Positions 1-52,800 of a stretch of DNA of 64,000 nucleotides are shown piece after piece. A model generated the notes under the pieces. It did no database searches, was not told the origin of the DNA, and saw only the letters and a program-made list of their open reading frames with translations. Each line of letters begins with the position of its first letter. Within the stretch, counting starts at the first letter, position 1. The stretch is from Takakia lepidozioides (taxonomy: Eukaryota; Plantae; Bryophyta), in the NCBI GenBank assembly GCA_030704615.1, contig CM060734.1, forward strand, positions 28,024,001-28,088,000, in the 5' to 3' direction. The translations under genes and the position numbers were made by a program.

Positions 1-2130
1 GTTGACGAGTCTGTGAAAGAGCTGCACGCATTGGCAGAAGAGAAGAGAAAGGAAAGACGTTTGTCCCTGCTGGCCAAAGTTGGCAAAGGAATCTGCTGCT
101 CTGGAAGAATCCAGGAAAGGCAGCTGAGATGGCACAAAGACGGTGGATGCAGCGTGCAGGCCCAATAGAAGGGATCGAAGAAGAGGACTCGCCAGCAAGG
201 AGCAGCTGTTGTGACACCCGCCAAAACGAAGAAGCAGAAAAGAAGCAGAAAAGCCTGTTCAGGAAGAGGGTGAGGAAGAGGACTCCGATGGAGACTTTGC
301 AACCAGCCCACCCCCCAAACGCAGGCTGCATCCCCTGTGCCCACGTGTCACGAGAATTGTGCACACGAGAGAATTGGCTCGGCAAAGAAAGAAGGCACTC
401 TTTCAACCCCAAGGGGGGAACCTTTCGAGCCGGTGGAAATGAAGAGGGCCGAAAGTGGCTCCCGAAACAGTTCCAGTGTGTAAATGAGAGTTTCTTGGCG
501 GCTTTAGATGGACGGGCAGCCAAGTTGGCATACATGAAGACCATGGAGGGTCTGAAGGGCAGAGCAAGATAGAAGGCGACTGCCGAAGAGCCTTTCGACA
601 CCCCAGGATTTCAGAATAGGTCTCGTTCTTTGAGAGGGTGTGTGCAACAAGGATTGTAGGGAGGGGCGATAAAATGCCAACGAAGTGGTCTGCGATATGA
701 TCATCTTGGAATTCCGGACGGAGAGCTTGTGGAAGGACTGCAAGTTTTGCCATCTTGGAACAGGTACTCGGAGGACTTTGGAAGAAAGGATTCGGGCTTG
801 CCCGCATGGTGTGGACGACAGAGGCTGGTGGTTGTCCTGGCGAGCAGAGGAAAAAAAAAACACCTCAGACAGGAATTGCGAAGTGGACCCGGCAAGAGCG
901 CCGTCCCGATTCGAAAAAAGAAAGTGGAGGAATGCACACTGGCACTCGTCCATTCATTTGCTTGGGTGTTTTCAAATGCGGTGCCGCATTCGGTTTCTAA
1001 TCGTTCCCCCCTGTGTATGCAGATGAAGCAGTTCGATGCATACTGCTTTGTGAAGGAGAACTCCACCTTTGCTTTCCGGAAGGAGGGAGGAAAGGTTGAC
1101 CCGAACTGCGACCCCCTCGATTACGACGTTCTGTTCAACAACGTTCCCAAGGAACTTCTCCCTCATAGCCTCACTTCAACGGAACCCCTGCGGTACTCAC
1201 GGACTCGGAGCCCTGCCTTCATTCAGACAATTATGGAGACATGCACAGACGTGGAGGGCACAGTGCTCGACCTCATCTGTGGGACAGGTATGCAGAATCT
1301 TGATCTATGCTGTTCTGCAAATTCTCGTTAGGATGTAGTTCGCAACATCTAAAGCGCCATGTGGTAATGTGTGGATGGCATTGTAACAGGTGCCTCAATG
1401 TGGGCTGGGCGGTTTTCCGACCGGAACCTCTTTGCCTACGAGGAGGATTCATCTGTGTGGGGATCCCATCTGGAAGGGGCTGCAACGGAATGTTAAGGCT
1501 CCCCAGACAGAGCGGAAGTCTCCTCGGATTCGTCGGAGTCCGAGGAAGACACAGTGGACATTGATGCGGAGGAGAACCCGGAATACGAGTGAGTGCAAAC
1601 ATTGTAAGTTTGCAAAGCCTTCTGGGTCATTTTTGTCAAACGAATTTCCCGACTGTGGTTCTCATTAGTCTCGTTGATGATTGTCATGTGCAGGATTGCA
1701 GGGTCTGGGTCGAAACATGTAGGGCCTACACTTCCTGCCAGGAAGAATGTCCCATTCTTTGCGAGGGCCGACTTCATGACGAGCCCGGTGAGGGACTACT
1801 CCCTTCCTAGTTATGCAGCTAAACTCGCAAATACAGCGATTAGAAGAAGTGAGAATCCCAGTAAACTAGAGCAGATTTTGGAGAGGGCTAGGGAGGACAG
1901 AAGGATAAGGAAAGAGTTGGCAGCAACTCAGACAGGTAGACGGGTACGAAAGTACATATGTGATTCAGCGGATGAGAGCGACGCAGACAGGGAGGAAGAG
2001 GACCCAACGGAGGTGAGATGGACAGTTCCGCAAGGGGAAGATGGGATTTTCGAAAAGCCTGGCCAACGAGCAGTCCGCTGGAGATGAGAAAGGCACTGAG
2101 GGGGTGGAGGCGGAGCAGGACAGTCTAGAA
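1..2130 (+). pseudogene. 3' exons of the ParB-like/amino-methyltransferase-like gene, copy 1, frameshifted
   Basis: CDMIIL(D)IPDG at ~692-723. SPAFIQTIMETCTDVEGTVLDLICGTG up to a GT donor at ~1288. Next exon after TAACAG (~1390) reads GASMWAGRFSDRNLFAYEED. Confidence 0.7.
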
Positions 2131-2299
2131 CAGGATGAGGATTCGGATGATTTTCAAGATTAATAGAATTTTAATGAAGTCTCTGTAAATGTAAATTCTC
2201 TTCCAGAGTGTATAAAGGAAATTATGCCCGACATTCGTGACCCCTCTCCAGTGTGCATTCCAGCCACACAATCGCCCAAACCACGACGCTCCCAAAATC

Positions 2300-2990
2300 A
2301 GGAATGGGGCACCGCATTTCCAAAACAGGGGAGGGACTAAATTTTCCATTTCAATGTTGGCATAGTAAAAAGTAATCGGCCGATTGGAAATGCGGTGCCG
2401 CATTTCCAAAATTTCCTTTGTCCACACGCCAGTTTTGGCCTCTCCCGCTCATTGCATGGATGCCACCACGCTTACAGAGGTCGAACAAGGAGGTCAAACA
2501 AGGAGGTCGAGATGGCGGAATTGAAAATGCGGTGCCGCATTTCCATATTGGGGATGGTCGTTGTTCGAACTGCAGGCCCATCAGCAAAAATTGGCACCGC
2601 ATTCCATTGTAAAAAAAAAAGTCGATGACGGACATGGAAATGCGGCGCCGCATTTCCAGAACGGACATCGCAATTTGTCCATTTGCAGACCCTCTCACGG
2701 AAATGTGGTAACGCATTCCATCGCGCTGGTCGGAAATGTCACACTTTTTGAAGTGTTGGACGGAAATGCGGCACCGCATTCCCTTGTCCAAAAAGAAGTT
2801 TCCATTGCCAAGCTGCAAATGCGTCGCCGCATTTGCAATGCCAACCTCGTTGTCTGTCCAATTTATAGACCCGTGTTGGTATTTCGTGTACCTGGACGGA
2901 AATGATGCACCGCATTTCATTGTCCGACACTGAAATGCGGTTCATACATTTCCATGTCGGCATGGAAATTCGGTGCCGCATTTCAATGTC
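2300..2990. repeat. Array of 22-bp palindrome GGAAATGCGGYRCCGCATTTCC (~10 copies)
   Basis: Copies visible at e.g. 2386, 2636, 2762, 2964. Confidence 0.9.
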
Positions 2991-3727
2991 CGACATGGCG
3001 TTACTCTGGTATATTCTTGACACGTGACTCACATACCGGTTACTCTGCTATATTCATCCGGACAGACACATTGTAGAAATGAGACATCAAATTGTAAACA
3101 GTGGGCCAATTCCGACAGTTATTCAACAGAATGAAACACAATCACACAGAAGTGAGGTACGATGGGTTTATTGATCGGACACGATGTCGGAGTACGCTCA
3201 ATGACAGCAGCTCCCGGATGGAGGAGGAGCAGCGCGGTGGCTGGAAAAAGTTCAGGCTAACGCTGCAATTCCTCACAAACACTCCAGGGCACATTTAAAT
3301 TTCCCCCCTATAGGATCCTGGACCGATGAAGATTGGCTGCTTCATGAATGTAGCCGTTTCAGTTTCCTACCCTGCCATGCAAACTATGGGCACTCACTGC
3401 CAGGTGGGCCGATAGCCACTGGACACGACGAAGTCCATCCCCTCTTCGATGTAAATGCGGCGCCGAATTTCCATCCGGGGGGATGGACTTCGGTGGCAGA
3501 TCTCAAACTATAACTTGTTGATGAGAAAGATGTATGGGTTCATCCACCGCCGGCGTGATGAACACGTTCCACCTCCGTCGGTGGGTACGTGGGACCCAGA
3601 TGCTCCATTATTGGAGGCCGGACTGCTCTTCCGCTTCGCATCATTTCCAAAATCTAAGGGCTTCGTAGCTGTCCGCAAGGTCATTGTCATCTGCATCCAA
3701 GTCGTCCTCAAGTCCTCCTTTGCAAGG

Positions 3728-4291
3728 ATGCCATGCTTCCGGAACCGGGACGACTGCCCATTTGGAGGCATCGATTATGCAATGTGTTCGGCCACATCGG
3801 GAGACATTGTTATCTGGTACACAGATTACAGAGAAGATACTGGTTCGATTGTGGAAACATTGGTGGCTTTTGAGTATATCCTAGGCCACTACGCCTTCGA
3901 GCGGGGTGACGATCTTGGTCTGAGGAGTCCGTGGCTCCTGCGCATCCTCGATTCCGATTTTCCCAGCTACGACGGTCACCCATGCAGAAGAAGGCGCACT
4001 GCTATGCTGTTGCGGTGGAACTGCTGCCACTGGACGTGGGTGGACTCCATCGGAGAGACCTATTCTCCTCAAGGAGTGCGCTCCTCTTCTCCATTGTATG
4101 GGGACATTCGCATTGGTGTGGACGACGAAAACGTGAAGATTTCCATATTCGATGGTGGTATGATTGAAGGGCAGGACATTGTGGTGAACATCACTAGGGG
4201 CGGTACAACGGCTGCAATCGACTTTACATGGAGGAGCCCCATGACTCATGAGCTAGTTCTGAGAGCAGTCGAAGTCCCATTGACAACGTGA
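3728..4291 (+). CDS. Small (~187 aa) cargo protein of unknown family, intact in this copy
   Basis: Open frame MPCFRNRDDCPFGGIDYAM...ELVLRAVEVPLTT. Homologous to 46692-47250 and paralogous to 45557-46138 (-). Confidence 0.65.
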   Translation: MPCFRNRDDCPFGGIDYAMCSATSGDIVIWYTDYREDTGSIVETLVAFEYILGHYAFERGDDLGLRSPWLLRILDSDFPSYDGHPCRRRRTAMLLRWNCCHWTWVDSIGETYSPQGVRSSSPLYGDIRIGVDDENVKISIFDGGMIEGQDIVVNITRGGTTAAIDFTWRSPMTHELVLRAVEVPLTT

Positions 4292-5329
4292 CTTGTATTC
4301 AGTAGGCACAGGGCTAAAGATTTGACTGCACAATCAGCACAGTAGACGTGCTTCAAATGCAATTCATGTGGATCAATAAAAACCTCATTGTGCCCTCTTT
4401 TTATTCTATTCTGTGTCCATCGTTCCCAGAATGCGTCATTGCTCATTTCGTTTGGGATTGGGAGTGTGGGTGGATTTTGCAAGTGGCTGGTAGGCTGAAA
4501 TGGGCCCCCATTGTACAGAGCAGTACCACCCTACCATTCGCGAAACATTGCCTTTCAATATATAATTCTAAATAACATTGCCGAACCTCCTTCATCGGGA
4601 GGTCGTTCTCCCCCTATGACCGTGGCACCCTAAACCCTATTCCCGCGGACACTCATTTCCGGAAAATAGTGCTGCTCATGTTTTTTTCCACACTTACGAC
4701 TCTGCTCATGGCTCATGCCGCTCATGGCTCATGGCTCATGAAATAGCAGCCCCCCATCACAGCCCACCACAGTCTAACATAGCATATCACAGCTCACCAC
4801 AGCTTGACACAGCCTGTCACAGCCCAACACAACCCACACAGGTTGCACAGTCCATAGGGTTAGTGACAGGTGGACGCGGGTTAACGTCATAAAAGTGGCC
4901 AGTGAGTGTAAAGGCAGTTTGGAAGTCAAACTTGGAGAATGTGCCACGCGGACAGAGGGAGACGGGAGAGTGTTGGAATTCAAACACGTGGCCTAAGGGG
5001 CAAAGCACTCCGCATTGCATGTACTGCAATAGCGGGCGCCATCATGCAAGAAGACAAGCAGGGCCGTCAAAGTACCTACCTGGTACATCAGCCGAAACTA
5101 ATTACGGGCCCATTAATGCGTCCAAAGAACAGGTCACGGAACCCTTTACGCGTCCGGCAAAGGGGGACCTTTGCCACATATGCAGTCCTAGTGGGCATTC
5201 CAAGTTGGAATGTGAACAGATGAGGGTAAAATTGAGAAGTTACCCAATGAGGCAAAGGCCAATTAGCAACGTGAATTTTATGCAAGTGGTTCCATTCAAG
5301 AAACAAGAACAAGAAATTAAAAAAGTTAT

Positions 5330-32314: not shown

Positions 32315-33191
32315 GACAGAGAGGTTTACTATTTCATGAGCAGAAACCACGAGCCATGAGCCATGAGCCGCATGAGCCGCATGAGCGGTGAGCCGAAGTC
32401 TAAGACACGCGGATTTCATGAGCAGACTCCTCCAAATTTGGAAATGCGGCAGATTAAACAAGTATTAAAATAATAGTTTTATATTTGACCTTGCCGTTTT
32501 TGGAAGTTACAGATCCTATAATGCGGCGAAGATATGTCGTCAGTAACAACTCCGCTCATGGTTTTTTAGATCCGCTCATGGAAATGAGTGACCGTGCAAT
32601 GAGAAATCCAGTATACCACGGCAAAAGGACGTCGCATACTGGCCTGTATAGAGTATTCCGCGGTTTTACATGCCTTAACATTGGAATGAAGCTGACCCTT
32701 TAACGCCCTCGGCAGCCAACCCTTAAATCGTGGAATGCCCTTGGGCAGTACTGAACCAATAGAGTCTGCACAATTCTATCATCTTCCAGTATTCGGCGGG
32801 AAAGTTTTGCAAGTGAACTAGGAAATGCGGTGCCACATTAGGGTTCGCACGTGCGAAATTTCTCGGCGGTTTGGTGTTGCTGACTGCCGCATCTACCAGT
32901 ACCTACGACGTTACTTGGAAATGCGGCGCCGCATTTCCTTGCCAGGGGTCGAATGAGGAAAGCAAAGTTTGGGAGAGCTGAAAAACATGAACCCTCCAAC
33001 ACACAAAAATACATGCACGTGGAAACACGAGTGAATGACATAGTATTATCGACGTTCGAGCAAAACAGGTTACTGGTAGGCAAGACATAAGTCGGACCTT
33101 TCTGTGGCCAGAGTCAGAGCTACTTGCAGCAGTACAGTTCTACTATCCGAAAAGGATGGGCGTACCATTGTGTTGGGACCGCAAGCCAAGG

Positions 33192-36100
33192 TCACTGGTC
33201 CCCTGGATCCATATTCAGAAGAGTGTGCACCTCTTGGGGGCTCAACCCTGGTGCATGTATGAAGTGATGAGTTGTGGAATTACACCGGAGTCTCTTTAGG
33301 TACACGTAGTACAGATGCTTGCAAAGGCAGTATGATGCCCCCTTGTTTGCCATGATCTGAAAGTCGGTGCAATTGCAGGTGGGTAATTCTGAAATGGTGA
33401 TGGTGTACACCTCATTGCGAACAGCTGAACCTGCCGTGGCCATCTGATACACACGCTCGAAGCCTGGTGGGGGCACTTCTGTCGAGCTCTGGATTGTACA
33501 GTTCATCCGAAGTGCATTCCCCATCCTCGTCTCATTCACTTTTGAGGGAGGTCGCCGCCTCTTCGGTTTCCCCAACGGTGTGTAGGATGCTTAGAGCTGT
33601 CGGGTCCCATTGTTCTTGCTCTCACATGGGTCGGTGGTGGAGGCTGTGGAAGCGGAAATGGTTGTCTGGGGGCGTTAGTGCGCTGCACCATCCGAAATCC
33701 TGCGGCGGTAAGGGCGTCGGCCTCAACCTGACTCAGATTGCAGCCTGGTTCCACCGGCCACACCGGGGGAGCCTCTGGCATTGTTTGTATGCCGTACTTG
33801 GGCTTTCCATACACGCAAATCATAATGTCGTGCCTGGAGAACCAGAACTGGGTGGTTGTCGCCTCCGCAAACTTTGCATGGACAAATCTTCCTATAAAAG
33901 TAGGAGCAGGGACAGCACCATCTGGATTCCTCCTTATCATCTCTAACAACGTTGCCGTGTATCCACTCGAATTGCGGAACACCTGCCTCAAACAACGGCT
34001 TTGTGCGAGCAATTCTCCACTGTGACGCAGACACAGTCGTCTCCACAATGGCTTGGCCATACTGCATAACAGCGGGCGGAATCTGGGGCAAGCGAGCCGT
34101 GGGAATTTCTCGCACGGAATCCCCGCTTGAAGGCGATGGCGATCTAGAATTTCTTGGGCTTCCACTGCTGGAAGACACATTGTGCGGCAACATGACGGGC
34201 CCTGGAGGTGCTGTCCGAATGTTCCTGTCGGATCTCCAGGAATCCTCTTCGCACCCGGTTTCCTCTTCAATCCTCCGCCTCACAGGGCGAGTACGGACGT
34301 CCCCCTCTAGGTGTTCACCTCTGCGGTGCAGAGGCGTCCCTTTGATCTTCTCTCGCAATGCTGTCGCCCATTTCAGTGGATTCTTCGACCTCGAAGCTGT
34401 TCGCACCAACAATTCTCCCTGTCCGGCCAAAGCCCCATTGATTCCCGCTCAGGAACTTGTAGTACGTGGCTTGCTGCATGATTGCTCTGTCGATGTCCTC
34501 CGTTGTGGCCGTCACTACGTCCGCCAGATGTGCGGCAGAAGACGCTCGCCAGGAGGAGTGCACTGATTCTGCCATATTCATGTTCGGCATGTCCATGTCG
34601 GAATCCAAACACCGCTCCTACAAGGACACAAACAATGATGAGGAACCAATGGAAAGGTCCGTAATAGAAAGACAATTGCACGAAAATGACAGCATCATAC
34701 CTCCCGCATGTACTGTCCGAACTGTCGATACCGGAAATGCCACCACCCCAACCAGCTGTGCAAGGCTCCCAGATTGGTTGTCTCCACTGCACCTGACGTG
34801 TTCCACCAAGCCTCGATGATAGCAAACTTAACCTCCGCGTCATCAAATGTGGGTGCATCCTTCCACGCCGTACAAAGGACACGGTGTTCAGCCTGGAATG
34901 AGCTAGCAACAATTTTGGTAGTGTAGTGGGATAGACTCTGCATCCAATGGAATCCACAGGATCTCTCTTTCCCCTCCATTGGAACATTGGGGTCCTCACC
35001 GTACACACGCGCACCGCTGCCCTGTTGGCCTGAGCGTTGTCTGCCTGAATCCCCTGAAATTGGGCTCTGGCAATCCCGCCCTTGCCATCTGCTCGTTTAT
35101 GCCCTCCCACAGATGCATCTCCGACTGTGTGTCCTCCCCTTTCATCTCGCAGATTGCAATCGTCATGAGCCTCTTGGAGTGATAGTCATAAACATGCGCA
35201 CCCATAGTCACCCACTGATGGTTTGTAATTCGCTTGATGTGATCAAACATCACCCAAGCATTCGACAGGTTTCCAGTTGTCATGCGAGTGACCAAGTCGA
35301 CCACTCCCAGGCCCACACGTCGACATTTTAAAAATGTAACAACGATCGGATTCGCTGCCTTGCCCTGGAAACCTGCTACCTTGGATGTAGTCATATCCAG
35401 TCATTCGTTTCACCTCCAGGATTGATGCATGTCCGACCCCCGGCCGAACTCCTGCTTGCAAGATACGATGTGATTCCGCACATTCGGACTACAAACGTGC
35501 GAGACGGACTCCAACAGGTCAAACATCTCCTTTTTCGTTCAAGGGCACTCGGTCTGAACCATCTTCAGACATGATTTTTCCAAGAGCAATCTTGTGGGCT
35601 GCCTTCAGCTGAATCTGCTTTGGTCTTGCTCCGGGGCTCAATTTCACCTCCTCTTTTATGATGTCGTGTGCTTCCTGCACAGCCTCACGCATGTTGCCTC
35701 TTGCCAAGGGGTGGCAGTGGACCCCAACGTGTATGCAAGCTCTAGTCAAGTCCGGGAGCAAATGGATAACGTAATATTGCTTGGCTCTGCACATGGACAT
35801 GCACGTCGGTGGTTCTTTGCAATGTGCGCACTTGAAAGTACCCGCAGGAGCTTGGCTGGAGACAATGAATGGATGATGCATTGTGCCAGTCCAATCCGTC
35901 TCGTTTCTCCGCCCTCCTTTGAAAGAAAAGTGGAAGCAGGCGGGATTCAGGCACCTCAGCTTCCCCGCACAGAGGACGTATCGTACACGAACCATCAGCA
36001 ATTTTCGTGCTACTGGTCTTCGTCACACACCAGGGGTGTCCGTCATGCTTTCGATCCATGTCTGTTAACATCCCTGAGGCTTTGTTTGAGGAAGTGACAG

Positions 36101-36650
36101 GTGGAAACTCGAAGATGACATTGCCATCGACTTCGGGAGGCAGATACGTTACCTTCCTGACTGGAAATTTGGCATAGTCGAGAGCAGCCAGCTCGGAGCG
36201 AGAACCATCGAGGTGATGTTGCCGTAGGAGCTGCACAATGGACCGGGTTGGAGTTATGCTCGAGAGTACTTGCGTAGCACCTGCAGAGACGTCCATGTCG
36301 GATTTGAACGACCGTGTGGAGGACATGGGGACCTCAATGCACTCATCTTCATCGTCGGAAATGTCGAATACGTCCACACGAGAAGCTATGGAGGGTCTTG
36401 ACGGTCCAGGTCGGGAATGATTATCGTTGCATACCTCTCTGTTGCAGTGGCCGCCTGTCGGTTTCCGGACTCCTTTGTGGATGGTGTGGGCAGCGACTGA
36501 TTCGGAAAGGGAATGGGCATTCCACAGCTCGGTATAGGATGGTGTCTGATGGGGGTACGTGCCCATTCGATTCCGCAACCTCCGTCGTTACCTAGCACGA
36601 CAATGGTCTCGTCAACCTGTCCAGGAACATCCTTCCTTTCTTCTTCCAAG
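33192..36650 (-). pseudogene. Mutator-like DDE transposase with N-terminal Cys/His zinc-binding region and C-terminal SWIM finger (intron ~34610-34700; frameshifts)
   Basis: WVMFDH (D1), ADNAQAN (D2), CGFH (CxxH), NMAESVH (E); SWIM TCNCTDF...CKHLYYVY; N-terminal C-x4-C...HxGxHxHP. Confidence 0.8.
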
Positions 36651-37149
36651 TAAACTGTGCCCGGTTTGAGCTTGAATTAGAACAAAGGTAAGTTTCAGTC
36701 ACTCTGCAAAGTCCTCCCTCGTTTGGGATCCAGGCTCTCCCAAGTTGCGGAGGACAGCAAACTATAGCGTAGGAATTCGGAGCCATCGAACCAACCGAAG
36801 TTGGCAAGTGCGAGGTTCAGTATAGCGACAGACGAAGGCTCACAGGCACCATGCAGTCCATCGACGATTGGAAGTCGCACATTGAAGTGGAAAGTATAGT
36901 TTCAGCTACATGCATGAAGGTGGGAGGTGTGATTCCATAGCCAGTAAGTTAGACAATGATGGCCGATCGGCGACGAAATAACATCTCCTGACAGTTTCTC
37001 CTGAGGGTGGATCCAGCAGTATTCTCGGTACGACAGGAGCGTTCGCACTGACAAGTGCCAGGACTGTTAGTTAAAACGGTCAGACAACCTAGTTGTGCTC
37101 ATCAAGACTGGCCGCAATTCTGTTGTTTCGGAACAATGCAACCATTCAG

Positions 37150-38700
37150 GTTCAACATGCGGAAATGAGGTTTCAGATTTCCGTCCGGAGTGATTCTTTC
37201 GATTGCTGCTGACGGAAATACGGAGCCGCATTTCCGTATTGCGTCTTGGCAGAGCGACGGAAATGCGGCACCGAATTTCCGTCCGGGGGAAACCTTACAC
37301 TCTCCAGACGGAAATGCGGTAACGCATTCCATCCAGCAAGCACGGTATGTGAAGTGGAACGGAAATGCGGTACCGCATTTCCGTTCTGATTGAGAATCAT
37401 GAACAAAGGGAAAGAAATGCGGCCCGCATTTCCGTCCGAGTCGCACGACATTCCATAACGGAAATGCGGCGCCGCGTCCGAGTCGCTTTTCCGACATTCC
37501 AGAACGGAAATGCGGCACGCATTTCCGCTGAGACCTTCAAACTCTCCAGAACGGAAATGCGGTACTGCATTTCCGTTCTGATTGAGAATTATGAACAACG
37601 GGAATAGAAATGCGGCACCGCATTTCCGTCCGAGTGGCACTTTCCGACATTCCAGAACGGAAATGCGGCGCCGCATTTCCGTTTTGTATCTGATGCATGG
37701 AGCCGAGTGCAATTCCGATCGCTGAGACAGCGCAATTCCGACCGCTTCAGACGACTATCCAGAACGGAAATGAGGTACGCATTTCCGTCTGACTGTAAAT
37801 CAACCATCGGACTGAAATGCGGCACACATTTCCATCCAGTCGCAAACAAGCTGAAACGGAAATGCGGCACCGCATTTCCGTTGATGAGAATTTGAGAATG
37901 GAATCCGTTGAATCGTGAAATTCGGAACTGAAATGTGTACAGCATTTCCGTCGGAGTCGCACCTTCGACATTCAAAACGGAAATACGGCGCCGCATTTCC
38001 GTTTTGTATGTGAGGCTAGAGCTTTGGAACGAAAATGCGGCACCGCATTTCCGGTCAGACTTAATACTGACAAAACGGAAATTTTCGTTCTGACTGAAAT
38101 CGTCAGCAGAACAGGCGATCGCACTTCCGACATTCTAGAACGGAAATGCGGCGCCGCATTTTCCGTTTTGTATATGAGGCCTGAGCTGTGGACGGAAATT
38201 CGATGCCGCATTTCCCATGTGAGACCTTCAAACTTTCCAGAGACCGGAAATGCGGCACCGCATTTCCTCTATACTTTCCGAACGGAAATGTGGCACGGCA
38301 TTTCCGTTCATCAACGAAGGTATGTGAAGGGGGAACGGAAATGCGGTACCGCATTTCCGTTCAGATTGAAAATCATGAACCACGGGAACTGAAATGCTGT
38401 GCCGCATTTCCGTCCGGATCGCACGTTTCGACATTCCAGAACGGAAATGCGGCGCCGCATTTCCCTTTTGTATCTCATACATGGAGCTGTGGGACGGAAA
38501 TGCGGCACCGTATTTCCGTTCAACAACTAAGGTATGTGAAGGTGGAACGGAAATGCGGTGCCGCATTTTCTTCCAACAAGCACGGATGTGTAGCTTCGTG
38601 ATGGTACTTAACGGAAATGCGGCGCCGCATTCGCATTTCAACTCCAACTCCAAATTTGAACACGTGGAGCAACGGAATTGCGGCACATGTCTGCACTCTA
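37150..38700. repeat. Dense array of the 22-bp palindrome (roughly 25-30 copies, ~50 bp spacing)
   Basis: Read directly, e.g. 37361 GGAAATGCGGTACCGCATTTCC and 37659 GGAAATGCGGCGCCGCATTTCC. Confidence 0.95.
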
Positions 38701-39043
38701 TCTGACTGAAGTGGCATGAGGCGGCGCGGCCTGACCGTTGGATAATGATGTTTGTTTTTTTCGGACGGCAGGCGTATCCTGAACGATTCGAATTTCGTAA
38801 TGACGCAAAGTCCACGAGGAGACACTTTCCTCAACCCTTTCGAACCCAAGTGCTGCATCACCGCCGTTTCATCTGCTTTTGTCGTGTCTCCTCAGTCACC
38901 TCTCTCGCGCCTTTCCATCTGCACTCTTCGCCCCTTTTCCCTGTCTCTGTTCTTCTTATGCTCGAACCTGAGAGGGAGGGAGTGCGTGCACCAGAGAAGA
39001 GACATCGTCGCAAGCTCCGAAAATTGTACTTCGGACGTAGGCA

Positions 39044-42000
39044 ATGCCGAAGGGGAGGAAGCAGATGCGTCTACAGGAGAGAATTGCCATCTCGCAGCAT
39101 CAGGCCACGCAGGCAACCCAGCCACCAGTGAGAGCTCCGTGCTATCGGGATTCGCCAGCTGATCGAGCACCGAAACCCGCCTCATTTTTCTTCTGCAATT
39201 CTTAGACTGTATGCTAGGAGACTTGACTGCAGAAGATGTTTGCATGCCTAACCGGAAAGGTGGACGTGCTGAGGGATCGCAGGAATCCGAAAGAGCCGCA
39301 GGCAGAGTCCGTGGAGCTAGCTGCAGCACGCACACCCCGATCGAGCGCTCTTCCTGCCGGGCCTAGCCCTGTGCGTTTCAAAGACGCGGCTTCCAAGGCC
39401 AAGTCTTTGCAGTTCAAAAGCCCCAGAGAGCGACTCGCTTCAAAGGTCATGGAGAATCGCCAGCAGGGGTCTAGCCCTTCTCCAGCAAAGATGAAGAAGA
39501 AGCAGCCCGTCCTTCAACTTGTTTCTGAACCGGACCAGGCCGTTTCACAGGCGAATGCAGATTCAATTGCAGCAGACACCTTCACCTGCAAGAATGAGGA
39601 GCACAAGGCAATCAGGGGAGGGCGGAGCAGTCTCCCGAAACCGATTCCACGAGCTGAAGCCCAGTTCGATTCCAACCTGCTTTGCGAAGCCTGCTGCAAG
39701 CCGGGATCGAGTGGTAGGGACCGGGAGGGTGCTGCCTCTCAACGTTCTCAGCAAAACCTGACCACAGTTGAGGAAGACCTGACCACTGAAGGCCCGGAGG
39801 AGGCCTCTGCAATTGCACAATTGTCCGCAAAGATTCCCCAGAGTGCAGCTCCAGTTGGGATGCTCCAGCTGCTCAGCCCTGCCGGCAACCAGCAGAAATG
39901 TCTCCGAGAGAATTCCAAAGTGCAGCGGATACAATGTTGGAGGAGACACATAGTAGCATTGGCAGAGTTCTGGGCAGCAGGGTATTCCAGCGGACTCTTC
40001 GAATCCCACTCTGTCGCATGGTCTCCCTTCCCATCGTCAGGCAGGCACTTCCCGGAGATGTGGATAAGCTCAAGTTCGCATTTCGAGAAGGGTACCGTCT
40101 AGGTTCGCCAGCCTTCTACGTTTCCCTTGAGAATGAGGACGGCGAATCTCGTGGACCCACTGCGGAGGAATTGTCAACATGGGATACCCACTGGCACACT
40201 CGCAACGACGAATTCGAGGCAACCCTGAAGGGTGATCCCGACTTCGGCCATATGTCGGGTAAAATGTTCTTTGTGTGGGACGGGAATCACCGACTTCTCG
40301 CCTGGTGGGAGTACATCAAGCAGAACCATGCCAAGCACATTGGCTGGCATTACATGGTGGAGTGTGTCATCCTCAAGGTGAAGGCGGCAGACTCCTCCCT
40401 GCTCAAGAATGCCATGGCGGACCTCAACTCGTAAGATACTCATACCCTCCCAAGCACGTTCGAAATGCGGTGCCGCATTTCGGTTTCCAATCTGTTTTGT
40501 TTCCGTGCTTCCGTGGACTGAACTGGAGAGTGTGCCTTGCAGGGTCACTGAAAATGCGTACGTGCATACCCACATGGCACATATGCTGTACAGGGTGAGG
40601 AAAACTGGTCTCACTGATCCGCAATGTTTGCGGAAAATGCTGGAGCCCGAGCTCATTCAGAAAGCCGTGGCAAAAACTGACCGGACATGGTATCGTCTCA
40701 CTATGGATGGAATGGTGGAGGTGATATACGAAGTAAGTCGTCCTCCCATTCCCTCTGCTCATCCTTCCCAATTTCCGGTAATCTTTCCACATGAATCGAA
40801 TGTAACGCTTCTGCATGTTTTTGTTGGCAGTCAAACATCAAGCTGGATTTGGCCCATGCCAAACGCTTCTTCATGGAAAGTGAGGGGCAGGTCAAAACGT
40901 TGCAGTCATTGACTGAGCACTTGAAGGAAGCCGGGGTCAAGTCCAGAACGAAATACAAGTCAAAGCTTGTGAAGCTGGTGGCCATTGCAGATCCGGCACT
41001 TGGAAAGGACTTCATCCCCGAGATTGCAAAACACTATTCTCGGGCCATGCAGCCGACCATGCAGTTGGAGAAACTGCATCACCTCTCAACGGCATGTGTT
41101 GAAGCGAAAGAGAAGGTGATGTTTCAATTCACTGAAGTTCCTTCCTAGCAATAGCCACTCTTCTTCCTGCTCTGACATTGGATCGGAAATGGCAGACACG
41201 GTGGCTGTCGATCTGGAATGCATCGGAGAGTATAAGGACAATGTGGTCTTTTCCACTCGAAGTTTCCGACCCTGCAGTGGATGTGTGGCTCAACCGCATG
41301 ACTTGGTGGTTCCAGGTAATTCAAGGTACTTCCCCAGATTTGCTTTTCTGAAATGAATTCCCTGAACTGCTACGTGACAATGCATGTGGGAATCGCAGGT
41401 AATGACGAATGCGAAGGAGCAAGTCGTAATGCATACAAATTCGTTCGGCTTGTACGTCAAATGGGATGGAACACAGACATTGGAAGACTACGTGACACGT
41501 TTCAGATGTGCTTACAAGGACAACCTCTTCGCCAGGGAGCTACAGACAGCAAGAAGGAGCGTGGAGTTTACACATCAGGAGGGAGCGGGAAAAGCTGCAA
41601 TGCGAATTGTTTACAGGTGAAGCCCAGCTGTCCTTGTATGCAAAGCCTGGTAATGAGGTTTGTCTGGGAAATGCGGCACCGCATTCGCATTTTATGTTTT
41701 CGGTTGCACTCTGCAGTACGTTGGTCTCAACTTTTGCTCACGCATGCTGACTGCCCTGCAGGTATATGAAATACGTGCTTCTTCAGACAGGGGCCCTGGC
41801 TCAAGAGCCCCCGTTCTTCATGGCTTGGACCGTGGCGGGCCCAAGCTGTGTCTACACACCCGAGCTGCAGAAACAATGGCATGCCGCGCATCTGGTTGGA
41901 TGCCCGTGGTACCTGGACATGTCTGGCGGAATTGTTGACGAGTCTGAGAAAGATCTGCACGCGAAAGCAGAAGAGAAGAGAAAGGAAAGACGTGTCCCTG

Positions 42001-44083
42001 CTCGGCCAGAGTCGGCAAAGGAAGCTGCTGCTCTGGAACAATCCAGAAAGGCAGCTGAGATGGCACAGAAAACGGTGGATGCAGCTGTGCAGGCTCAACA
42101 GAAGGGGTCGAAGAAGCGGACTCGCCAGCAAGGAGCAGCAGTTGTGACACCCAAGAAAACGAAGAAGCAGAAACAGATAGTGCAGGTAGAGGGTGAGGAA
42201 GAGGACTCCGATGGAGACTTTGCAACCAGCCCACCCCCCGAGACGCAGCCGAAATCCCCTGTGCCCACCGTTGTCACGAGAGGGACGAGAACTGGCTCGG
42301 CAAAGAAGGCACTCTTCAACCCCCCGGGGGGGCACCCTTTCGAGCCGGTGGAAATGAAGAGGCCGAAAGTGGATCCCGATACAGTAGTCCAGTGTGTGTG
42401 AATGAGAGTTTCTTGGCGGCTTTGGATGGACGGGCAGCCAAGTTGGCATACATGAAGACCATGGAGGGTCTGAAGGGCAGAGCACTGAAGAAGGCGGCTG
42501 CCGAAGAGCCTTCCGACACCCCCGGGTTTCTGAAGATGGTCTCGTTCTTTGAGAGGGTGTGTGCAGACAAGGATTGCAGGAGGGGCGGAAATGCCACCGA
42601 TTGGTCTTGCGATATGATCATCTTGGATATTCCGACGGAGAGCCTGTGGAAGGACTGCAAGCTTTGCCATCTTGGAACAGGTACTCCGAGGACTTTTGGA
42701 AGAAAGGATTCGGGCTCGCCCGCATGGTGTTGGACGACAGAGGCTGTGTGGTTGTCCTGGCGAGCAGGGCAAAAACACGCAGACAGGAATTGCGAAGTGG
42801 ACCCGCAAGAGCGCCGTCCCAATTCTGAAAAAAAGAAGTGGACGTGCATCAACACATTGGGCCTTCGGTCGAAGGAAAGAAGGTAATTACGACCTTGGCA
42901 AACGTCCTTTCATTTTCTTAGGAGTCTTGAAAATGCGGTGCCGCATCGATTTCTAATCGTTCCCCACTGTGTATGCAGACGAAGCAGTTCGATGCATACT
43001 GCTTTGAAGGAGAACTCCACCTTTGCTTTCCGGAAGGAGGATTGTGGGTGACACCGAACTGCGACCCCATCGATTACGACGTCCTATTCAACAACGTTCC
43101 CACGGAACTTCTCCCTCATAGCCACTTCAACTGAACCCCTACGGTTATTCACGCACTCGGAGCCCTGCCTTCATTCAGACAATTATGGAGACATGCACTG
43201 ACGTGGAGGGCACAGTGCTCGACCTCATCTGTGGGACAGGTAATGCATAATCTTGTTGTATGTTTTTTCTGCAAACTCTTGTTATGCTTTCATTCGCAAC
43301 ATCTGAAGGCCATTTCATAATGTGGGGATGGCATTGTAACAGGTGCCCTCAATGTGGGCTGGGCGGGTTTTCCGACTGGCACCTCTTTGCCTACGAGGAG
43401 GACACAGCGTCTGGGGATCCCATCTGGAAGGGCTGCAACGGAATGTGAAGGCTCCCATCGAAGTCAAAGACTCCTCGGATTCGTCAGAGCGGAGGAAGAA
43501 CAGTGGACATTGATGCCGAGGAGAACCCGGAATAAGAGTGAGTGCAAACATTGTAAGTTTGCAAAGCCTTCTGGGTGATTTTTTGTCAAACGCATTTCCG
43601 GACTGTGGTTCTCATTGGTCTCTATGGTTATTGTTATATGCAGGATTGGAGGATCCGGGTCGAAACATGTAAGGCCTACACTTCCTGCCAGGAAGAGTCT
43701 CGTTCTTTGCGAGGGCCGACTTCATGACGAGCCCGGTGAAGGACTACTCCCTTCCTAGTTATGCAGCGAAACTCGCAAATACAACGATTAGACGATGTGA
43801 ATCCCAGTAAAGTAGAGCAGATTTTGGAGAGGGCTAGGGAGGACAGAAGGATAAGGAAATAGTTAGCAACAGCTGAGGCAGGTGGCGGGTGCGAAAGTTT
43901 CATATTGATTCACGGATGAGAGCGATGCAGACAGGGAGGACGACGAGCCAACGGAGGAGATGTCGGTTCCGCAAGGTGAAGATGGGATTTTTGAAAGCCT
44001 GGCCAACGACCAGTCCGCTGGAGATGAGAAAGGGAATGACGGGGTGGAGCGGAGCAGGACAGTCAAGAACAGGCCGACAGTAG
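39044..44083 (+). CDS. Multi-exon gene: low-complexity N-terminus, ParB/Srx-like domain, linker, beta-class N6A/N4C DNA methyltransferase-like domain, acidic tail (frameshifts present)
   Basis: FFVWDGNHRLLAW at ~40267-40305; CDMIILDIP ~42608-42634; RMVLDDRG; SPAFIQTIMETCTDVEGTVLDLICGT|GASMWAG..LFAYEED. Apparent GT-AG introns at ~39128-39217, 40431-40542, 40733-40830, 41116-41196, 41316-41398, 41617-41761, 42883-42978, 43240-43342, 43539-43643. Confidence 0.7.
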
Positions 44084-44235
44084 TGTGATTTTCAAGATTA
44101 ATACAATTTTAATGACTCTCTGTACATTTAATTCAATTCCAGAGTATATAAATGGAATTCTCCCCGTCCTTCATGTCCCCTCTCCATGTGCTTCTAAACG
44201 ACAACATCGTCCAAACCTGGTCCCTCCCAAAATCA

Positions 44236-45290
44236 GAAATGCGGCACCGCATTTCAATGTCTGAACGGAAATGTGGCAACAGCAAAAACCTCATTTGGAA
44301 ATGCGCACCGCATTTCCAAAACCGAAGCAGAACAAATTTCCGATTCATGTTTGGACATCAGAAACTGTTCGGACAAACGGAAATGCGGAAATGCGTGCCG
44401 CATTTCCGTTTCCGACACGGCACTTTTTTGCCGATTGGCAGCTCCTTCCATGGATGTAAATCGAAATGCGGAGGTCGAACATGGAAATCGGTGCCACATT
44501 AACCTTTTGGAGATGGACATTTTTTCCAACTGCAGACCCATCGACGTTCTTGGGCTCCCCAATTCCATGATGCTAGACGGGAATGCAACACCGCATTCCA
44601 TTGTCCAATAAGAAATTTCGATGACGTACATGGAAATGCGGCGCCGCATTTCCAAAGGGACATCGTTGTTTGCCCAATTCCAGACCCTTTGATGGAAATG
44701 CGGCACCGCATTCCATCGTCCTATAAAAACTTACATTGTCCTATAAAAACTTTCAATTGCCCAAAATGGGAAATGCGGCGCCGCATTTCCAAAACAGACA
44801 TCGTTGTTTGTCCAATTCCAGACCCGTTGGGCATTCCGTCTTGATGTGACGGAAATACGGCACCGCATTCCATTGTCCGATTCGATATTTTGATGATAGA
44901 CATGGAAATGCGGTGCCGCATTTCCAGAACGGACATCGTTGTTTGTCCAATTCCAGACCCTTCGACGGAAATGCGGCACCGCATTCCAGTGTGCTCTCCG
45001 GAAATGCTGTGCCGCATTTCATTGTCCGGTACGAAATTTCGATGACAGACATGGAAATGCGGTGCCGCATTTCAAGTATGGACATGGACAAGCATTAGCG
45101 ACTGGACATGCTTGGATAGTTCAAGGTCGAATATGGAATGCGGCGCCGCATTTCAAATTCGAAGTATGGTAATGCCATGTTAGGAAATGAAATGTTGTAC
45201 AACATTTCCGTTACGAACAACGGAGGAAAGGGAGCTGCCAGAAATCGCTTCATGGAGAAAATGGAATGCGGTGGCGAATTTCCGAGCTTC
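44236..45290. repeat. Second array of the same palindrome (~15-20 copies)
   Basis: e.g. 44632, 44769, 44904, 45053. Confidence 0.92.
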
Positions 45291-45556
45291 GGCGTGTACA
45301 TGTTTCCTACAACTCATACTTGGATTTTCTTCACCTCAGGACTGTGATATCGCTGACTCTGGTAAATTCATATGGACAGACACATTGTAGAAATGAGACC
45401 TCAAATTGTAAACAATGGGCCAATTACGGCAGTTCTTGAACACGATGAAACACAAGCACACAGAAGTGAGGTACGATGGGTTGTTTTTTGATCGAACACG
45501 GTGTCTCACATTTAGCAGCTCCAGACAAATCTAAGCCCTTCCTCCTTCTACGAGTG

Positions 45557-46138
45557 TCACCAAGTCGACGGAACTTCGATAGCCCTCAAAACTAGCTCAT
45601 TACTGATGCGGCATCTCGAGGTAAACTGCAATGCGGTCGATCTGGTGCCCTTGGTGGAGCTGACGACAATGTCATACCCATCAATCATACCACCATCATA
45701 CATCGACAAGGCCACTATGGGCCTCCTGTGCCCGTGCGATTCGTCTTCGCAACTCAGCCGAATGTCTCCATACACTGGAAAAGCGGAGTGAACTCCACGA
45801 ATATAGTTTTTCCCCGGTGCCGTCCTCCCTGGTCCACTGGCAGCAGTTCCAGCGCCAAAGTGAGGCCGTGCGTGATCTGTCCGGCATCCCATTCCACCTT
45901 GGTATATCGAGGTCAACAATTTTCAGGACCCACGGACCGCATTGACCCTCGCCCTCACCTCGCTCAAAGCGGTAATAGCCCTCCAGATACTCCATTGCGC
46001 GCGCAAAGACTCCCGCTTGATTCCAGATGCGTCTGTGAAAAGTGAAAGCCAGACAATGATGTCTCCTGATTGTGGTTTGAACATAGCATAATCGTTGCCA
46101 TGATAAGGGCAGTCAGCAGGATTTTGGCGGCACGGCAT
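45557..46138 (-). pseudogene. Unknown small protein, paralog A (frameshifted)
   Basis: MPCRQNPADCPYHGNDYAM..SGDIIVW...RWNCCQW...YGDIRL...DGGMIDGYDIVV...ELVLRAIEVP. Confidence 0.65.
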
Positions 46139-46691
46139 CCCTGAAAAAGAGTAGCGCAGTACGCTCAATGACAGCAGCTCCCGATGGAGGAGGTAGCAGC
46201 GCGATGGCTGGAAGAAATTCAAGCAAACGCTGCAATTCGTCACAAATACTCCAGGGCACATTTAAATTTCCCCCTACAGGAACCTGCAGGGATGAAGATT
46301 GGCTCATCCATGGATGTAGCCGATTCAGTTTCCTTCCCTCCATGCAAACTATGGGCAGTAAGTGCCAGGTGGGCCTATAGCCACTCGAGACGACGAAGTC
46401 CATCCCCCCCTTCGATGTAAATGCGGCGCCGAATTTCCATCCGGGGGATGGACTTCGGTGGCAGATTTCAAACTATACCCCGTGGATGAGAAAGAGGTAT
46501 CGATTCATCCACCGCTGGCTTGTTGAACATGTTACACGATGATTGGTGGTACTTGTGACCCAGATGGTCCATTATTGGAGCCCGCACTGCTCTTCCGCTT
46601 CTCATCATTTCGAAAATCTAAGGGCTTCGTTGCTGTCCGCAAGGTGATTTTCATCGGCATCAAACACGTCCTCAGGTCCTCCTTTGCAAGG

Positions 46692-47250
46692 ATGCCGTGC
46701 TTCCGGAACCGGGACGACTGCCCTTATGGAGGCATCGATTATGCAATGTATTCGGCCACATCGGAGACACGTTATCTGGTACACACAGATTACACAGAAG
46801 ATACTGGTTCGAATGTGGAAACATTGGCCGCTTTTGCGTATCTCCCGGCCAGTCGCTGCGAGCGGGGTGACGATCTTGGTCTGAGGAGGTCCGTGGCTCT
46901 CCTTCGCATCCTTGTTCCATTTTCCCAGCTACGACGGTCACCCATGCAGAAGAATGCGCACTGCTATGCTGTTGCGGTGGAACTGCTGCCAGTGGACGTG
47001 GGTGGACTCCATCGGAGAGACTTAATACTCCTGAAGGAGTGCGCTCATCTTCTCCATTGTATGGGGACATTCGCATTGGTTGGACGGCGAAAACGTGAAG
47101 CTTTCCATATTTCGATGGTGGTATGATTGAAGGGCAGGACATTGTGGTGAACATCACAGGGGCGGTACAACTGCTGCAATCCGTTTACCCTGGAGGAGCC
47201 CGAAACTCATTAGCTAGTTGTGAGAGCAGTCAGAAGTCCCATTGACAAAA
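46692..47250 (+). pseudogene. Unknown small protein, paralog B (frameshifted copy of 3728-4291)
   Basis: MPCFRNRDDCPYGGIDYAM...; close nucleotide similarity to 3728-4291. Confidence 0.65.
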
Positions 47251-47727
47251 CGTTCTTGTATTCAGAAGGCACAGGGCTAAAGATTTGTTTGCACAATCAG
47301 CACAGTAGACGTGCTTCAAATGCAATCTGTGGATCAATAAAAACCCCATTGTGCCCTCTTTTTTGTTCTATTCTGTAATCCATCGTTCCCAAATGCATCA
47401 TTCCTCATGTTTCATTTGGGATTGGGAGTGTGGGTGGATTTAAATTGCAAGTGGCTGGTAGGATGAAATGGGCCCCCATTGTACAGATCATACACCCTAA
47501 CATTCGCGAAACATTGCCTTTCAATATGTAATTCTAAAAAACATTGCCGAACCTCCTCATCCGGGAGGTCCTTCTCCCCCTATGACCGTGACACCCTAAA
47601 CCCTGATTCCCCGCGAGCACTCTTTCCGGAAAATATCCTGCTCATGTTTTTTTCTTTTTTTCGAACACTTACGGACTCTCTGCTCATGTCTTCATGGCTC
47701 ATGGCTCATGAAATAGCAGCCCCCCCT

Positions 47728-48890
47728 GACAGAGAATGGGTTGACCCCATCCGAGGAGAAGCCGAGGTGGACATGTCGTGGCCTCCAAGAGAAAATGCCA
47801 CATCTCTTCAATATGCCTCCATGCTTGTGAATCTTGTGGCCCCCGCACACCTTTCCCCGTGGGCTCCGATGCGAGGCGTGCCATCTCATGAGTCTGGCCA
47901 ATTCAGGGCTTCGGTATTGTGCCCTCAATCGCGGGATGATCGGAAAGTAATGCATTTTCTAGGATAATACGCCACGCCCCCCCCCCCAACATGTATCATC
48001 CCCTTAGCACACATAATACAACACCCTTATGCCTTTCCCTTTATGCGCCTCTCCCTCATTTGGGTGTGAATGGGTCAAAACCGAAAACGCGAACGTCGCT
48101 CCTTCCATAGCTTCACTCACTCTTTCTTCCAAAACCCAATCAGATCTTGCATGAGTACTACTCTCTAAACCCTAACTTTGTGGAATACACTTTACATAAC
48201 ATTGAGAAGATTAAGAAAGTAATCTCCATGCGATGGGGAATGACGCTTATACCTTGCGTGGTACTTTTTTCCCTTGGACATCATCCCAATATCGGTCTTT
48301 CTTGCACTTGTTGGGCACTTGGTGAGATACGAATCCTCTCCGTAGGATAGGGTTTTTATCACATGGACCTGCATGAAAAATCTTATAGCCCATCCCCACA
48401 TCAGTCCAAGACTTCGCGCGCCTCTTTCCGCGACCGGTGGCATCTTGGGTTTCAAGTGTGGAGCAAGGATATAGTCTGCAATAGTTCGCATTATGGCAGA
48501 CATCCCAACATTACTTATGCCAAATCGAATTTGGAAGATTGAGCAAAGTAAAATTGTTGAAAGTCGACTCACTTTCGTCGCCTCTTCGTACAAGGGAGTT
48601 CTCGGCCTCCCTCTCCATGTCATTTGAGGGGGCCATTTCAGGATCATCGATTGGCCGGTTTCCCTCTTCATGGGATGCATCATGCCCACATGATGCATTA
48701 AGAGATCCTCCATGGCTTGCACATCCTCCTGGTTAATTCCATGCTCATTGTTTGTTGTCACTGTCACTGTCATCATCGTTGGTACCGCTGGTTGCGGCGT
48801 CTCACCCACGGCTCGCCGCCTCTGTCCCTTGGTTTGTTTTTTGGACTGGGGTTGCCAAGAGAAAGACCGGGAAGGGCTTTTCCCCGTCCT
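47728..48890 (-). pseudogene. CACTA Tnp2/TnpD transposase, N-terminal part
   Basis: TPLYE; HACP; KCP; MHYFPIIPRLRAQY...MRWH; DSQAWRH; RHVHLGFSSDGVNPF. Confidence 0.88.
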
Positions 48891-51200: not shown

Positions 51201-51821
51201 CTTAGATACAGACATCTCTGGGAGGATCAGAGCAGGCTCGGGGCATGATATGGCGTGAGTTGGCCATTAGACTACAGCCGGATCATCCTATGGATGGCTC
51301 AGTGATGCGAGCCAAGGCCATTGTGACAGATGCGGTCTCTTACGATGTCCTCGTTGGTGGGGCAGTGTTATATCCCATGGGCTTCACCCTGGATTTTTGG
51401 GAGGAGTCAGCATCCTACAGGCCTGGATGGCACTCAGGGGATGGTCGTCGTGTACAACTCCCTGTGACATTCATTGGGGGTGTTGCTGCTGCCCAGCGGA
51501 GCAAGATGCCAACACTAGCAGCCTTTACAACTGCAGTTAGTTGGCCTGGAGAGTTGCTGGAGCAGGCCAATGCCCATGCAGAGGAATGTGCACCTCTTAT
51601 AAGCAGGATGACATCATGGTACAGCGGAGTTGTCCGCCATGGTTGCTCACACTCCATTGTGGGGTACGAGCAAGGATTTGCAGCAGGCTGCTGATAGACA
51701 GATGCAACAAGCCTGGGTAGAGGCCTTCGTACCGTCAGGAGAGGAGGAGAGTGCGGTGAATGCACCAGGACCCCCTTAGTTGTTGCCATTGGACACCACA
51801 CCTCTTGTGTGGCAGTGCCTG

Positions 51822-52800
51822 GATGAAGGCATATGCCTTCTGGACTTGTTTGGCGGGATCAACATTGGATTGGCTGCAGTGCTGTAGGTAGGTGTACGAG
51901 TTTGACGTTACCTATATGTGGAGAGGGATGAGACTGCACGACGCATCTCACTGCGCCATGTTGCTTAGTTGGTGCAGCAGTACCCTGATTTGTTGCCAGT
52001 GTCTGCAGTTCGTGGATACCAACAAGCCTTGCCAGCAGACATCTCATTGCTGGGGGCGCATGATTTGGAGCGGGTTGGCCCTATTCACTTAGTAGTGGCA
52101 GGTTGGCCCTGCCAAGGGCTTTCATCAGCTGGGTATGGCAATGGGTTACAAGACTCAAGGTCACGCCTGTTTTGGGAGATGTTGAGGGTCCTGCGCTATT
52201 TACAGCTTCAGCAGACAGACTCTGCGGCATATATCTTGGAGAATGTGCCATTGATGGGTGATTCTCGGGCCAAGGTGATGGCCAGTGTACATCAAGTGCG
52301 GTCTTGGCTTGGGTCAGCAGTGTTGCTAGATGCAGCTGCAGTGGGGTCATGGGCTCATCGCCCACGACTATGGTGGACCAACTTGATGCCACCTGCATTG
52401 CTCAAGCGTGCATTTGATGGGGTGCAGCGGCCACCAAACCTGACGGTGGATAACATTTTGGACATAGGAAGGCAGTCTTAGCGTGTGAGACATGATGACC
52501 GATCACCTTTGGCAGTGGTCAATAAGGTGGGTCACCCACGAGTCGCATTGCCTACACTACTCAGTTTTCTAGGATCCCATGCTTTTCGGGATGGTGGACC
52601 TGGCCTCTTGTGGGATAGCCAGTTGCACCAATTAGTGGAGCCCAATGCTGACGAGCGCGAGCGGGCGATGGGTTTTACCACTGGTACCACGGCGGTGCCA
52701 TCTATTTCTGAGGCATCACGTCGTCAGGTGTTGGGGCAAGCAATGGATCTCAATTGCTTGATCTGGATTATCAGCTTGGCTATGGCTGAGCAGCGCCGAG
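51822..52800 (+). pseudogene. C5-cytosine DNA methyltransferase domain (DNMT3/bacterial-like) within pol
   Basis: Motif I LLDLFGGI, II YVERD, IV VAGWPCQGLS, VI ILENV, VIII HRPRLWWTN, IX-X ERERAMGF...RRQVLGQAM; a few TAG/TGA stops. Confidence 0.9.

Follow-up and report, generated by a model that had tools for sequence, protein, structure and literature searches.

In the moss Takakia lepidozioides, a 64,000-nt stretch of DNA (assembly GCA_030704615.1, contig CM060734.1, positions 28,024,001 to 28,088,000, forward strand; hereafter the window) contains a gene whose product combines a ParB/sulfiredoxin (Srx)-fold domain, a helical middle region and a beta-class amino-methyltransferase-like domain. 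We found that this gene is carried by a 15,405-bp DNA transposon that is likely Mutator-like and that holds arrays of a 22-bp palindrome. On the basis of sequence, structural models and analogy, we propose, with a probability of roughly 45%, that the gene encodes an accessory protein that binds the palindromes of its own element and protects or switches on that element without having a working methyltransferase.

A gene joining a ParB-fold domain to a methyltransferase-like domain

The gene runs from an ATG at 39044 to about 44088. It has nine GT-AG introns, 78-145 nt long, which we located by hand and then verified with a script. It is organized as follows:

39044..44088, + strand: gene with ParB/Srx fold, helical middle and beta-class amino-methyltransferase-like part; with 9 introns between 10 exons; the reading frame is shifted in this copy
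39982..40430, + strand: ParB/Srx-fold domain with VR, DGNHR and DxN motifs; its 3' end is a family-wide phase-2 intron
40543..41980, + strand: middle region, fold unassigned; conserved with the Ceratodon purpureus protein P0191 (tblastn, phmmer); candidate DNA-binding part
42605..43409, + strand: beta-class amino-methyltransferase-like domain with motif IV DIPD (42626-42636), VI, X, split I and II

The original prediction, made from the letters of the window, had described an intron-rich gene of this kind, and every motif that it quoted was found where it had been placed, on the + strand: VRQ...WDGNHRLLAW in the exon at 39982-40430, CDMIILDIP at 42608-42633, RMVLDDRGCVVV and RSPAFIQTIMETCT, GTVLDLICGTG, which is interrupted by the GT-AG intron 43240-43342, and LFAYEED. 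The introns held up as well, and two of them (introns 4 and 5, 41116-41195 and 41316-41398) were skipped exactly by one contig from X11, a probable RNA run. Two probable RNA runs cover the gene stretch in short pieces, with no contig bridging the ParB and methylase-like domains. A second gene copy at window positions 1-2320 is 85% identical and spans the 3' half only. Each window copy has one indel near motif IV, and the two copies combined give DIPD, as the original prediction had cautioned; the additional G at 42633 is present in 30 X1 contigs and in X6.

The two window copies differ by 196 substitutions (75 transitions and 121 transversions) and 76 gap events over 2249 aligned bases, and 55 of the 76 gaps are single-base. 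For the presumed long terminal repeat (LTR) pair in the same window, transitions and transversions number 9 to 1, with 3 gaps in 502 bases. The window indels at 42392, 42633, 43004 and 43346 are missing from contigs of other copies and coincide with the frame changes demanded by homology. Because the differences are transversion-rich, mostly single-base and absent in other copies, we infer that the frameshifts are residual long-read errors in a high-copy repeat; they may also reflect true decay of the window copies.

Judged by its predicted structure, the N-terminal domain belongs to the ParB/Srx fold superfamily, in agreement with what its motifs had suggested. The model of the ParB exon had a predicted local distance difference test (pLDDT) score of 93.5 (AF2), and a VIA search with it returned 13 of 48,161 chains at Z ≥ 2, led by KorB (Z 8.1, root-mean-square deviation 2.5, 90 aligned), PadC (7.7), Srx (7.0) and SerK (6.8). 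We class the top 12 of these 13 as ParB/Srx folds, in part on general knowledge. Foldseek pointed in the same direction, with Noc as its best match (E 5.6e-3) and no row at or below 1e-3. In the ParB-domain alignment (A2), an upstream R (86/102), a G (100/115), an R (92/113) and an N (71/82) are conserved, which we take to be positions of the ParB nucleotide pocket, or ParB boxes. At the level of profiles, none of 116 family members matched PF02195 (Pfam ParB_N) at E ≤ 0.1 among the best 25 of 28 families, no window gene piece matched PF02195 or PF01555 (145 window pieces scanned, E ≤ 0.05) and PHROGs returned nothing for the window's own gene pieces. The domain assignments draw on homologues and on the predicted fold. 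Atlas features tied the ParB exon (39931-40431) weakly to fungal DUF3723 (0.93, 31% of members), as they did the middle region (P0191 382-730; 0.77, with no feature above 0.82). Fungal DUF3723 genes are presumably genes of Starship elements; no paper was found that joins both terms of this link, which is a lead only.

By sequence comparison, the family is large and spans moss, liverwort and fern. A HMMER search of 1.84 billion representatives with the ParB exon gave 496 clusters at E ≤ 1e-3; 150 of these were listed, and 20 clusters were looked up, 17 of them from those 150. The named members among the clusters looked up were Riccia sorocarpa, Adiantum nelumboides, A. capillus-veneris and Ceratodon purpureus, the others being open reading frames from metagenomes or assemblies, and no algal sequence was among the named matches. 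Both domains are carried by single gene models in Ceratodon (P0191, 1147 amino acids) and Riccia (P0153, 1207 amino acids), and the window exons follow P0191 in the same order over the ParB domain, the middle region and the methylase-like end, with a phmmer E of 1.6e-87 among four sequences. We examined 80 metagenome loci, near-duplicates counted in. A GT donor stood at the identical phase-2 position in 63 of the 66 loci whose match reached the exon end, and a methylase-like stretch was present in 12 of 13 loci with at least 3.3 kb downstream (8 of 9 distinct). In a tree of the ParB domain (60 rows, midpoint root), the window grouped with Ceratodon and unnamed sequences and was separated from Riccia and Adiantum (95/97). 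Searched by word index against longer proteins, the window exon matched 0 of 533 candidates.

The C-terminal domain is, by sequence, beta-class amino-methyltransferase-like. P0191 scored 30.4 bits against PF01555, above the cut-off of 26.7, over model positions 2-217; P0166 and P0172 also exceeded the cut-off, Riccia P0153 (E 5e-5) fell under it, and PHROG methyltransferase families matched three of the four Riccia proteins tried. With the window collinear with P0191, these profile matches support the predicted class and the motif order IV-VI-X-I-II. The methylase-like part of the window aligned to its Ceratodon homologue with a score of 96, compared with a mean of 29 and a maximum of 50 for 1000 shuffles. 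The methylase-domain model of Riccia P0154 was poor (pLDDT 36); the top 10 Foldseek rows obtained with this type of model were all beta-class enzymes but at E ≥ 0.016, and VIA returned unrelated folds (best Z 6.0).

The active site of this domain appears altered yet conserved, and the domain is likely to be largely non-catalytic. Across the family, motif IV reads D/N-x-P-x; of 12 types, none has PP, 3 are aromatic at the fourth residue, and none shows the catalytic form (D/N/S)PP(Y/F/W). The window has DIPD, Ceratodon, in its KAG0631975.1 type of protein, DTPF, Adiantum DVPF and DFPI, and Riccia D[LM][PS][ST] in 18 of 25 rows (6 blank, 1 misaligned); metagenome loci have DYPE, DIPE, DVPR, NIPR, DIPW, NIPG and NVPS. 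As regards motif I (FxGxG) and the acidic motif II, the window sequences DLICGTG and YEED retain GxG and the acid, and moss-like members drop the glycines. The motif IV tyrosine of rotifer N4CMT is described as stacking the target base, and the change from SPPY to APPA as killing activity (PMC8885841, PMC10406627). Because this base-stacking aromatic is Asp in the window gene, little or no methyl transfer would be expected. The domain is nevertheless conserved, as it is under purifying selection: the ratio of nonsynonymous to synonymous substitution rates (dN/dS) between the two window copies was 0.21 (115 gap-free codons, Fisher p 0.005; frames set by hand, codons at most 4 nt from a gap removed), with control values of 0.75 for the linker and of 0.75 and 1.13 for shifted frames.

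The host transposon and its palindromes

The gene lies inside a bounded element. X6 and X11 contigs join position 32314 to 47728, skipping 15,413 nt with 8 letters that fit either side, and this empty site identifies the element as a 15,405-bp insertion with an 8-bp target duplication, GACAGAGA. Summed X3 contig depth is mostly 1,000-9,400 inside the element, as compared with 170-490 in the flanking bins. Both ends share the core CTATTTCATGAGC in inverted orientation, and the second copy, at the left of the window, has the same ending. The element is complete and bounded, and apparently recently mobile. Its features and those of the second copy are:

32315..32322, no strand: left target-site duplication GACAGAGA; counting the next outer base makes it 9 bp, one of them mismatched
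32323..47727, no strand: complete DNA transposon, 15,405 bp, high copy, likely Mutator-like (empty-site contigs, depth, shared terminal core)
32323..32400, + strand: left terminus; imperfect terminal inverted repeat, short GAGCCAT-type subterminal repeats
33192..36590, − strand: frameshifted transposase gene; N-terminal part resembling a zinc finger, core with D...D...CxxH...E, SWIM finger at the C-terminus; an intron is probable at 34700-34618, and the start codon is uncertain
37214..38634, no strand: array of 21 copies of the 22-bp palindrome GGAAATGCGG-YR-CCGCATTTCC, between the two divergent genes
44235..45283, no strand: second palindrome array, 10 copies, 3' of the gene
45550..46170, − strand: unassigned, putatively coding frame C1, inverted paralogue of C2; no Pfam match
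46500..47250, + strand: unassigned, putatively coding frame C2, also in the left copy
47660..47727, + strand: right terminus, last letters GCTCATGAAATAGCAGCCCCCCC
47728..47735, no strand: right target-site duplication GACAGAGA
1..4755, + strand: second element copy, truncated by the window edge to its right part, which holds methylase-like exons, palindromes, C2 and the right terminus; 85-89% identity

The original prediction had further supposed an anciently acquired gene now carried by a transposon. Of this, the introns and the carriage by a transposon held up. A phage or plasmid donor was not found for the ParB part: no relative of the ParB exon appeared in viral contigs, phages or PDB sequences, and no phage or plasmid record matched. 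The present analysis adds a transposase, both ends of the element, the arrays of palindromes and a published algal precedent.

Mutator (MULE) elements have target duplications of 8-10 bp, usually 9, plus terminal inverted repeats. Here the duplication is 8 bp exact, or 9 with one mismatch, and the terminal inverted repeat is short and imperfect. The transposase motifs were read by eye from the translation, against what we take to be the Mutator motif pattern; the SWIM match had E = 0.11, compared with 0.0038 in a related gene at 59600-62060, and pieces of the frameshifted transposase matched neither PF10551 nor KDZ. Because Pfam supports SWIM alone, and weakly, we call the element only likely Mutator-like. 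Its transposase lies head-to-head with the ParB-methylase-like gene, upstream and on the opposite strand, and an upstream transposase on the opposite strand was also seen in 5 of the 12 loci that extend 4 kb or more upstream, namely L052, L073 (a weak case), L074 and L079/L080. The related gene at 59600-62060 (+ strand) encodes a second SWIM transposase, 35-45% identical to that of the element, and is followed at 63587-64000 by a repeat of about 95 bp that holds a variant of the same palindrome; this region may represent a sister subfamily. In L052, a 51-bp tandem repeat occupies 4952-5357, in the transposase 5' region.

The palindrome had 49 matches, 37 in the full element, 11 in the second copy and 1 elsewhere. 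Within the element, 21 are intergenic, 10 are downstream of the gene, 3 lie in its introns (40463, 41669 and 42931), 2 are near the left end and 1 is between C1 and C2; none falls in an exon of the ParB-methylase-like gene or in the transposase. The CpG observed/expected ratio is 1.47 in the array versus 0.63 in the window, an excess that arises partly because the palindrome itself contains CG. L029, a distant family member, has 17 copies of another 22-bp palindrome around its ParB gene, and L052 has a tandem repeat of about 136 bp with an 18-bp palindrome at 7500-8240, upstream of its ParB gene. One X12 contig (depth 49.7, 36977-38574) joins pieces of the intergenic array with large skips and may represent a shortened version of the array or a derivative that is non-autonomous. 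The divergent paralogues C1 and C2 (45550-47250) had no Pfam match and no match in the 80 loci. A CACTA/EnSpm-like element (30500-32314, − strand, and from 47728 on; DUF4218 E 7e-18) is the insertion target. A CACTA type for the 15.4-kb element itself was dropped, as the DUF4218 gene (31166-31901) sits outside the target duplication and is part of the interrupted element.

Proposed function and alternatives

If the accessory protein acts as we propose, a dimer would load at the palindromes through the middle region, the ParB-fold domain would bind nucleotide, and the methylase-like fold would grip or flip bases. By occupying the shared promoter, the introns and the flanks, the protein could then counter host silencing by 5-methylcytosine (5mC), as VANC does for VANDAL elements, which we take to be Mutator-like. 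Several observations weigh against this proposal. The palindromes could be transposase sites; clear arrays were seen only in L029 and L052 among 13 loci examined, most AT-rich loci being without them; and no transposase was seen in 7 of the 12 loci having long upstream DNA. The middle region had no Pfam match and no Atlas feature that exceeded the value given above, and neither a helix-turn-helix (HTH) nor another DNA-binding fold was recognized in it. Purifying selection fits an active enzyme equally well, Ceratodon retains DTPF, and the window copy is itself frameshifted. Palindrome binding, nucleotide use and methylation state are all predictions.

In the main rival, which we consider unlikely, the protein would be a working amino-methyltransferase whose D-x-P-x motif is non-canonical. 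Directed by the ParB domain, it would write N4-methylcytosine (4mC) or N6-methyladenine (6mA) on the element's CG-rich palindromes, a mark of self that blocks host 5mC or licenses transposition. The first D/N and third P of motif IV are kept in moss, liverwort, fern and most metagenome members, the acidic motif II is retained in the window, Ceratodon, L005 and Riccia, and the aromatic residue is kept in Ceratodon DTPF, Adiantum DVPF and L058 DIPW. The PF01555 match of P0191, the low dN/dS of the domain and the CpG content of the array, in so far as it exceeds the motif's own CG, are also consistent with activity. However, the fourth position of motif IV is free (D, E, R, G, S, T, I, F, W), and most members have a motif I that does not follow FxGxG (DLICGTG, DCHAMTG, DWNASTG, DLSPFIG). 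A wider version, which seems doubtful to us, is that in an old, large Mutator-like family of mosses, liverworts and ferns a nucleotide-gated ParB-like clamp would load on parS-like palindromes specific to each subfamily, spread from there over the element and, through a rebuilt amino-methyltransferase domain, write 4mC/6mA or shield cytosines, so that the element would mark itself against silencing. If true, a bacterial-style partition module would have been turned into an epigenetic weapon, and land plants would have a possible second source of 4mC.

The protein might instead assist transposition structurally, as a second factor resembling MURB that bridges or compacts element DNA, with the palindromes bound mainly by the transposase; this strikes us as distinctly unlikely. 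ParB-type proteins bridge DNA, the gene is head-to-head with a transposase across hosts, and palindromes occur also near the left end and beside the related transposase (63631-63916). According to the abstract of a 2026 preprint, the AtMu1 transposase by itself activates cognate copies. Yet the palindromes are mostly internal (promoter region, introns, downstream), the termini carry a different repeat, and the retained methylase-like fold is left unexplained by such a role. That the gene is a decayed passenger without present function seems to us very unlikely: both window copies are frameshifted, with frequent gaps between them, and many metagenome loci are broken, but the four window indels are missing from other copies, the transversion-rich, mostly single-base differences resemble residual long-read errors, and the low dN/dS, a spliced contig and the intact target duplication all speak against decay. 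A palindrome-binding, largely non-catalytic accessory protein is the reading that we prefer.

Neighbouring elements and known systems

Elsewhere in the window, the stretch 4758-25990 holds LTR-like repeats nested in one another, with CACAG-type tandem units of 10 bp, and reverse transcriptase fragments lie at 17188-17616 and 28247-29700. In a Ty3/gypsy pol gene at 51800-55900 (+ strand), reverse transcriptase, RNase H and integrase are preceded by a C5 DNA methyltransferase domain that matches PF00145 at E 2e-11 and has PCQ and ENV motifs. This gene resembles KnitGypsy-Dnmt3 as described from Klebsormidium (PMC5890265), and would extend that family to land plants.

The likeness of the gene to bacterial ParB, Noc and KorB CTPases consists in the ParB/Srx fold with a GxxR motif. 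The moss gene reads GNHR where CTP-hydrolysing ParB, as we understand it, has GERR. With bacterial and phage beta-class methyltransferases (CcrM, M1.HpyAVI and M.BceJIV; PF01555) it has the motif order IV-VI-X-I-II in common, although the matches are weak and concern the methylase part alone (best phage E 7e-5). ParB-HTH-fused enzymes are assigned to another methylase group in the account of Iyer et al. 2016. Rotifer N4CMT (PMC8885841, PMC10406627) and Marchantia DN4MT1 (bioRxiv 10.1101/2021.02.12.428880) likewise place a prokaryotic-type beta-class fold in a eukaryote; as described there, they keep SPPY and are host genes without ParB, whereas the moss family is transposon-borne and lacks SPPY/DPPY. 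The family is also a caution against reading amino-methyltransferase-like genes of non-seed plants as host 4mC writers, since they may be carried by transposons and have altered active sites.

Molecular detail on how transposons evade DNA-methylation silencing is available for few systems. In the account of Arabidopsis VANDAL/VANC (PMC5735166), a transposon-encoded accessory protein binds a family-specific motif that occurs densely in non-coding DNA, namely introns, intergenic stretches and termini; those motifs are 9-bp and of single orientation, as opposed to the 22-bp palindromes here. The likeness considered here is one of motif layout. For the algal ParB-plus-methylase genes, the hypothesis of self-modification was raised without a test, as far as the published descriptions go. 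The moss element offers a bounded land-plant example with a sharp candidate target, the L029-type palindrome offers a specificity control, and the intact-looking homologues in the model moss Ceratodon make the hypothesis directly testable.

The closest precedents are algal. On the Bostrychia Plavaka elements (PAG2/PAG3; bioRxiv 10.1101/2025.02.11.637652), a ParB-like protein is described beside tandem inverted-repeat arrays, with a PF01555 domain on the same element; there, ParB-2OG oxygenase and methylase-SET are separate genes, whereas in the moss ParB and methylase-like domains form one protein. The same preprint reports homologues of the Bostrychia accessory genes in Chondrus Mutator elements. 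The Ectocarpus element Sola1-1_Ec32 (PMC12477816) is described as encoding an accessory protein with ParB-like and N4C/N6A methyltransferase domains. Common to it and the moss element, compared by description, are both domains in one protein of about 1100 amino acids, the strand opposite the transposase and a large DNA transposon; the former comes from a brown alga and the Sola-1 superfamily, the latter from a land plant and a SWIM/Mutator-like type. The passage on Sola1-1 mentions no degenerate active site, in contrast to DIPD in the moss gene (PMC12477816). Self-binding has been proposed for both Ectocarpus Sola1-1 (PMC12477816) and Bostrychia PAG3 (bioRxiv 10.1101/2025.02.11.637652). No description of the family in land plants was found in a literature search that left out most subscription papers, Repbase and bioRxiv supplements (Bostrychia Table S6). 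Because ParB-plus-methylase accessory genes have already been published for algal transposons, we regard the moss gene as a land-plant variant rather than a new kind; what is new is the land-plant range, the likely Mutator-like host, the fully bounded element, palindromes that differ between subfamilies and an active site that is altered and yet conserved.

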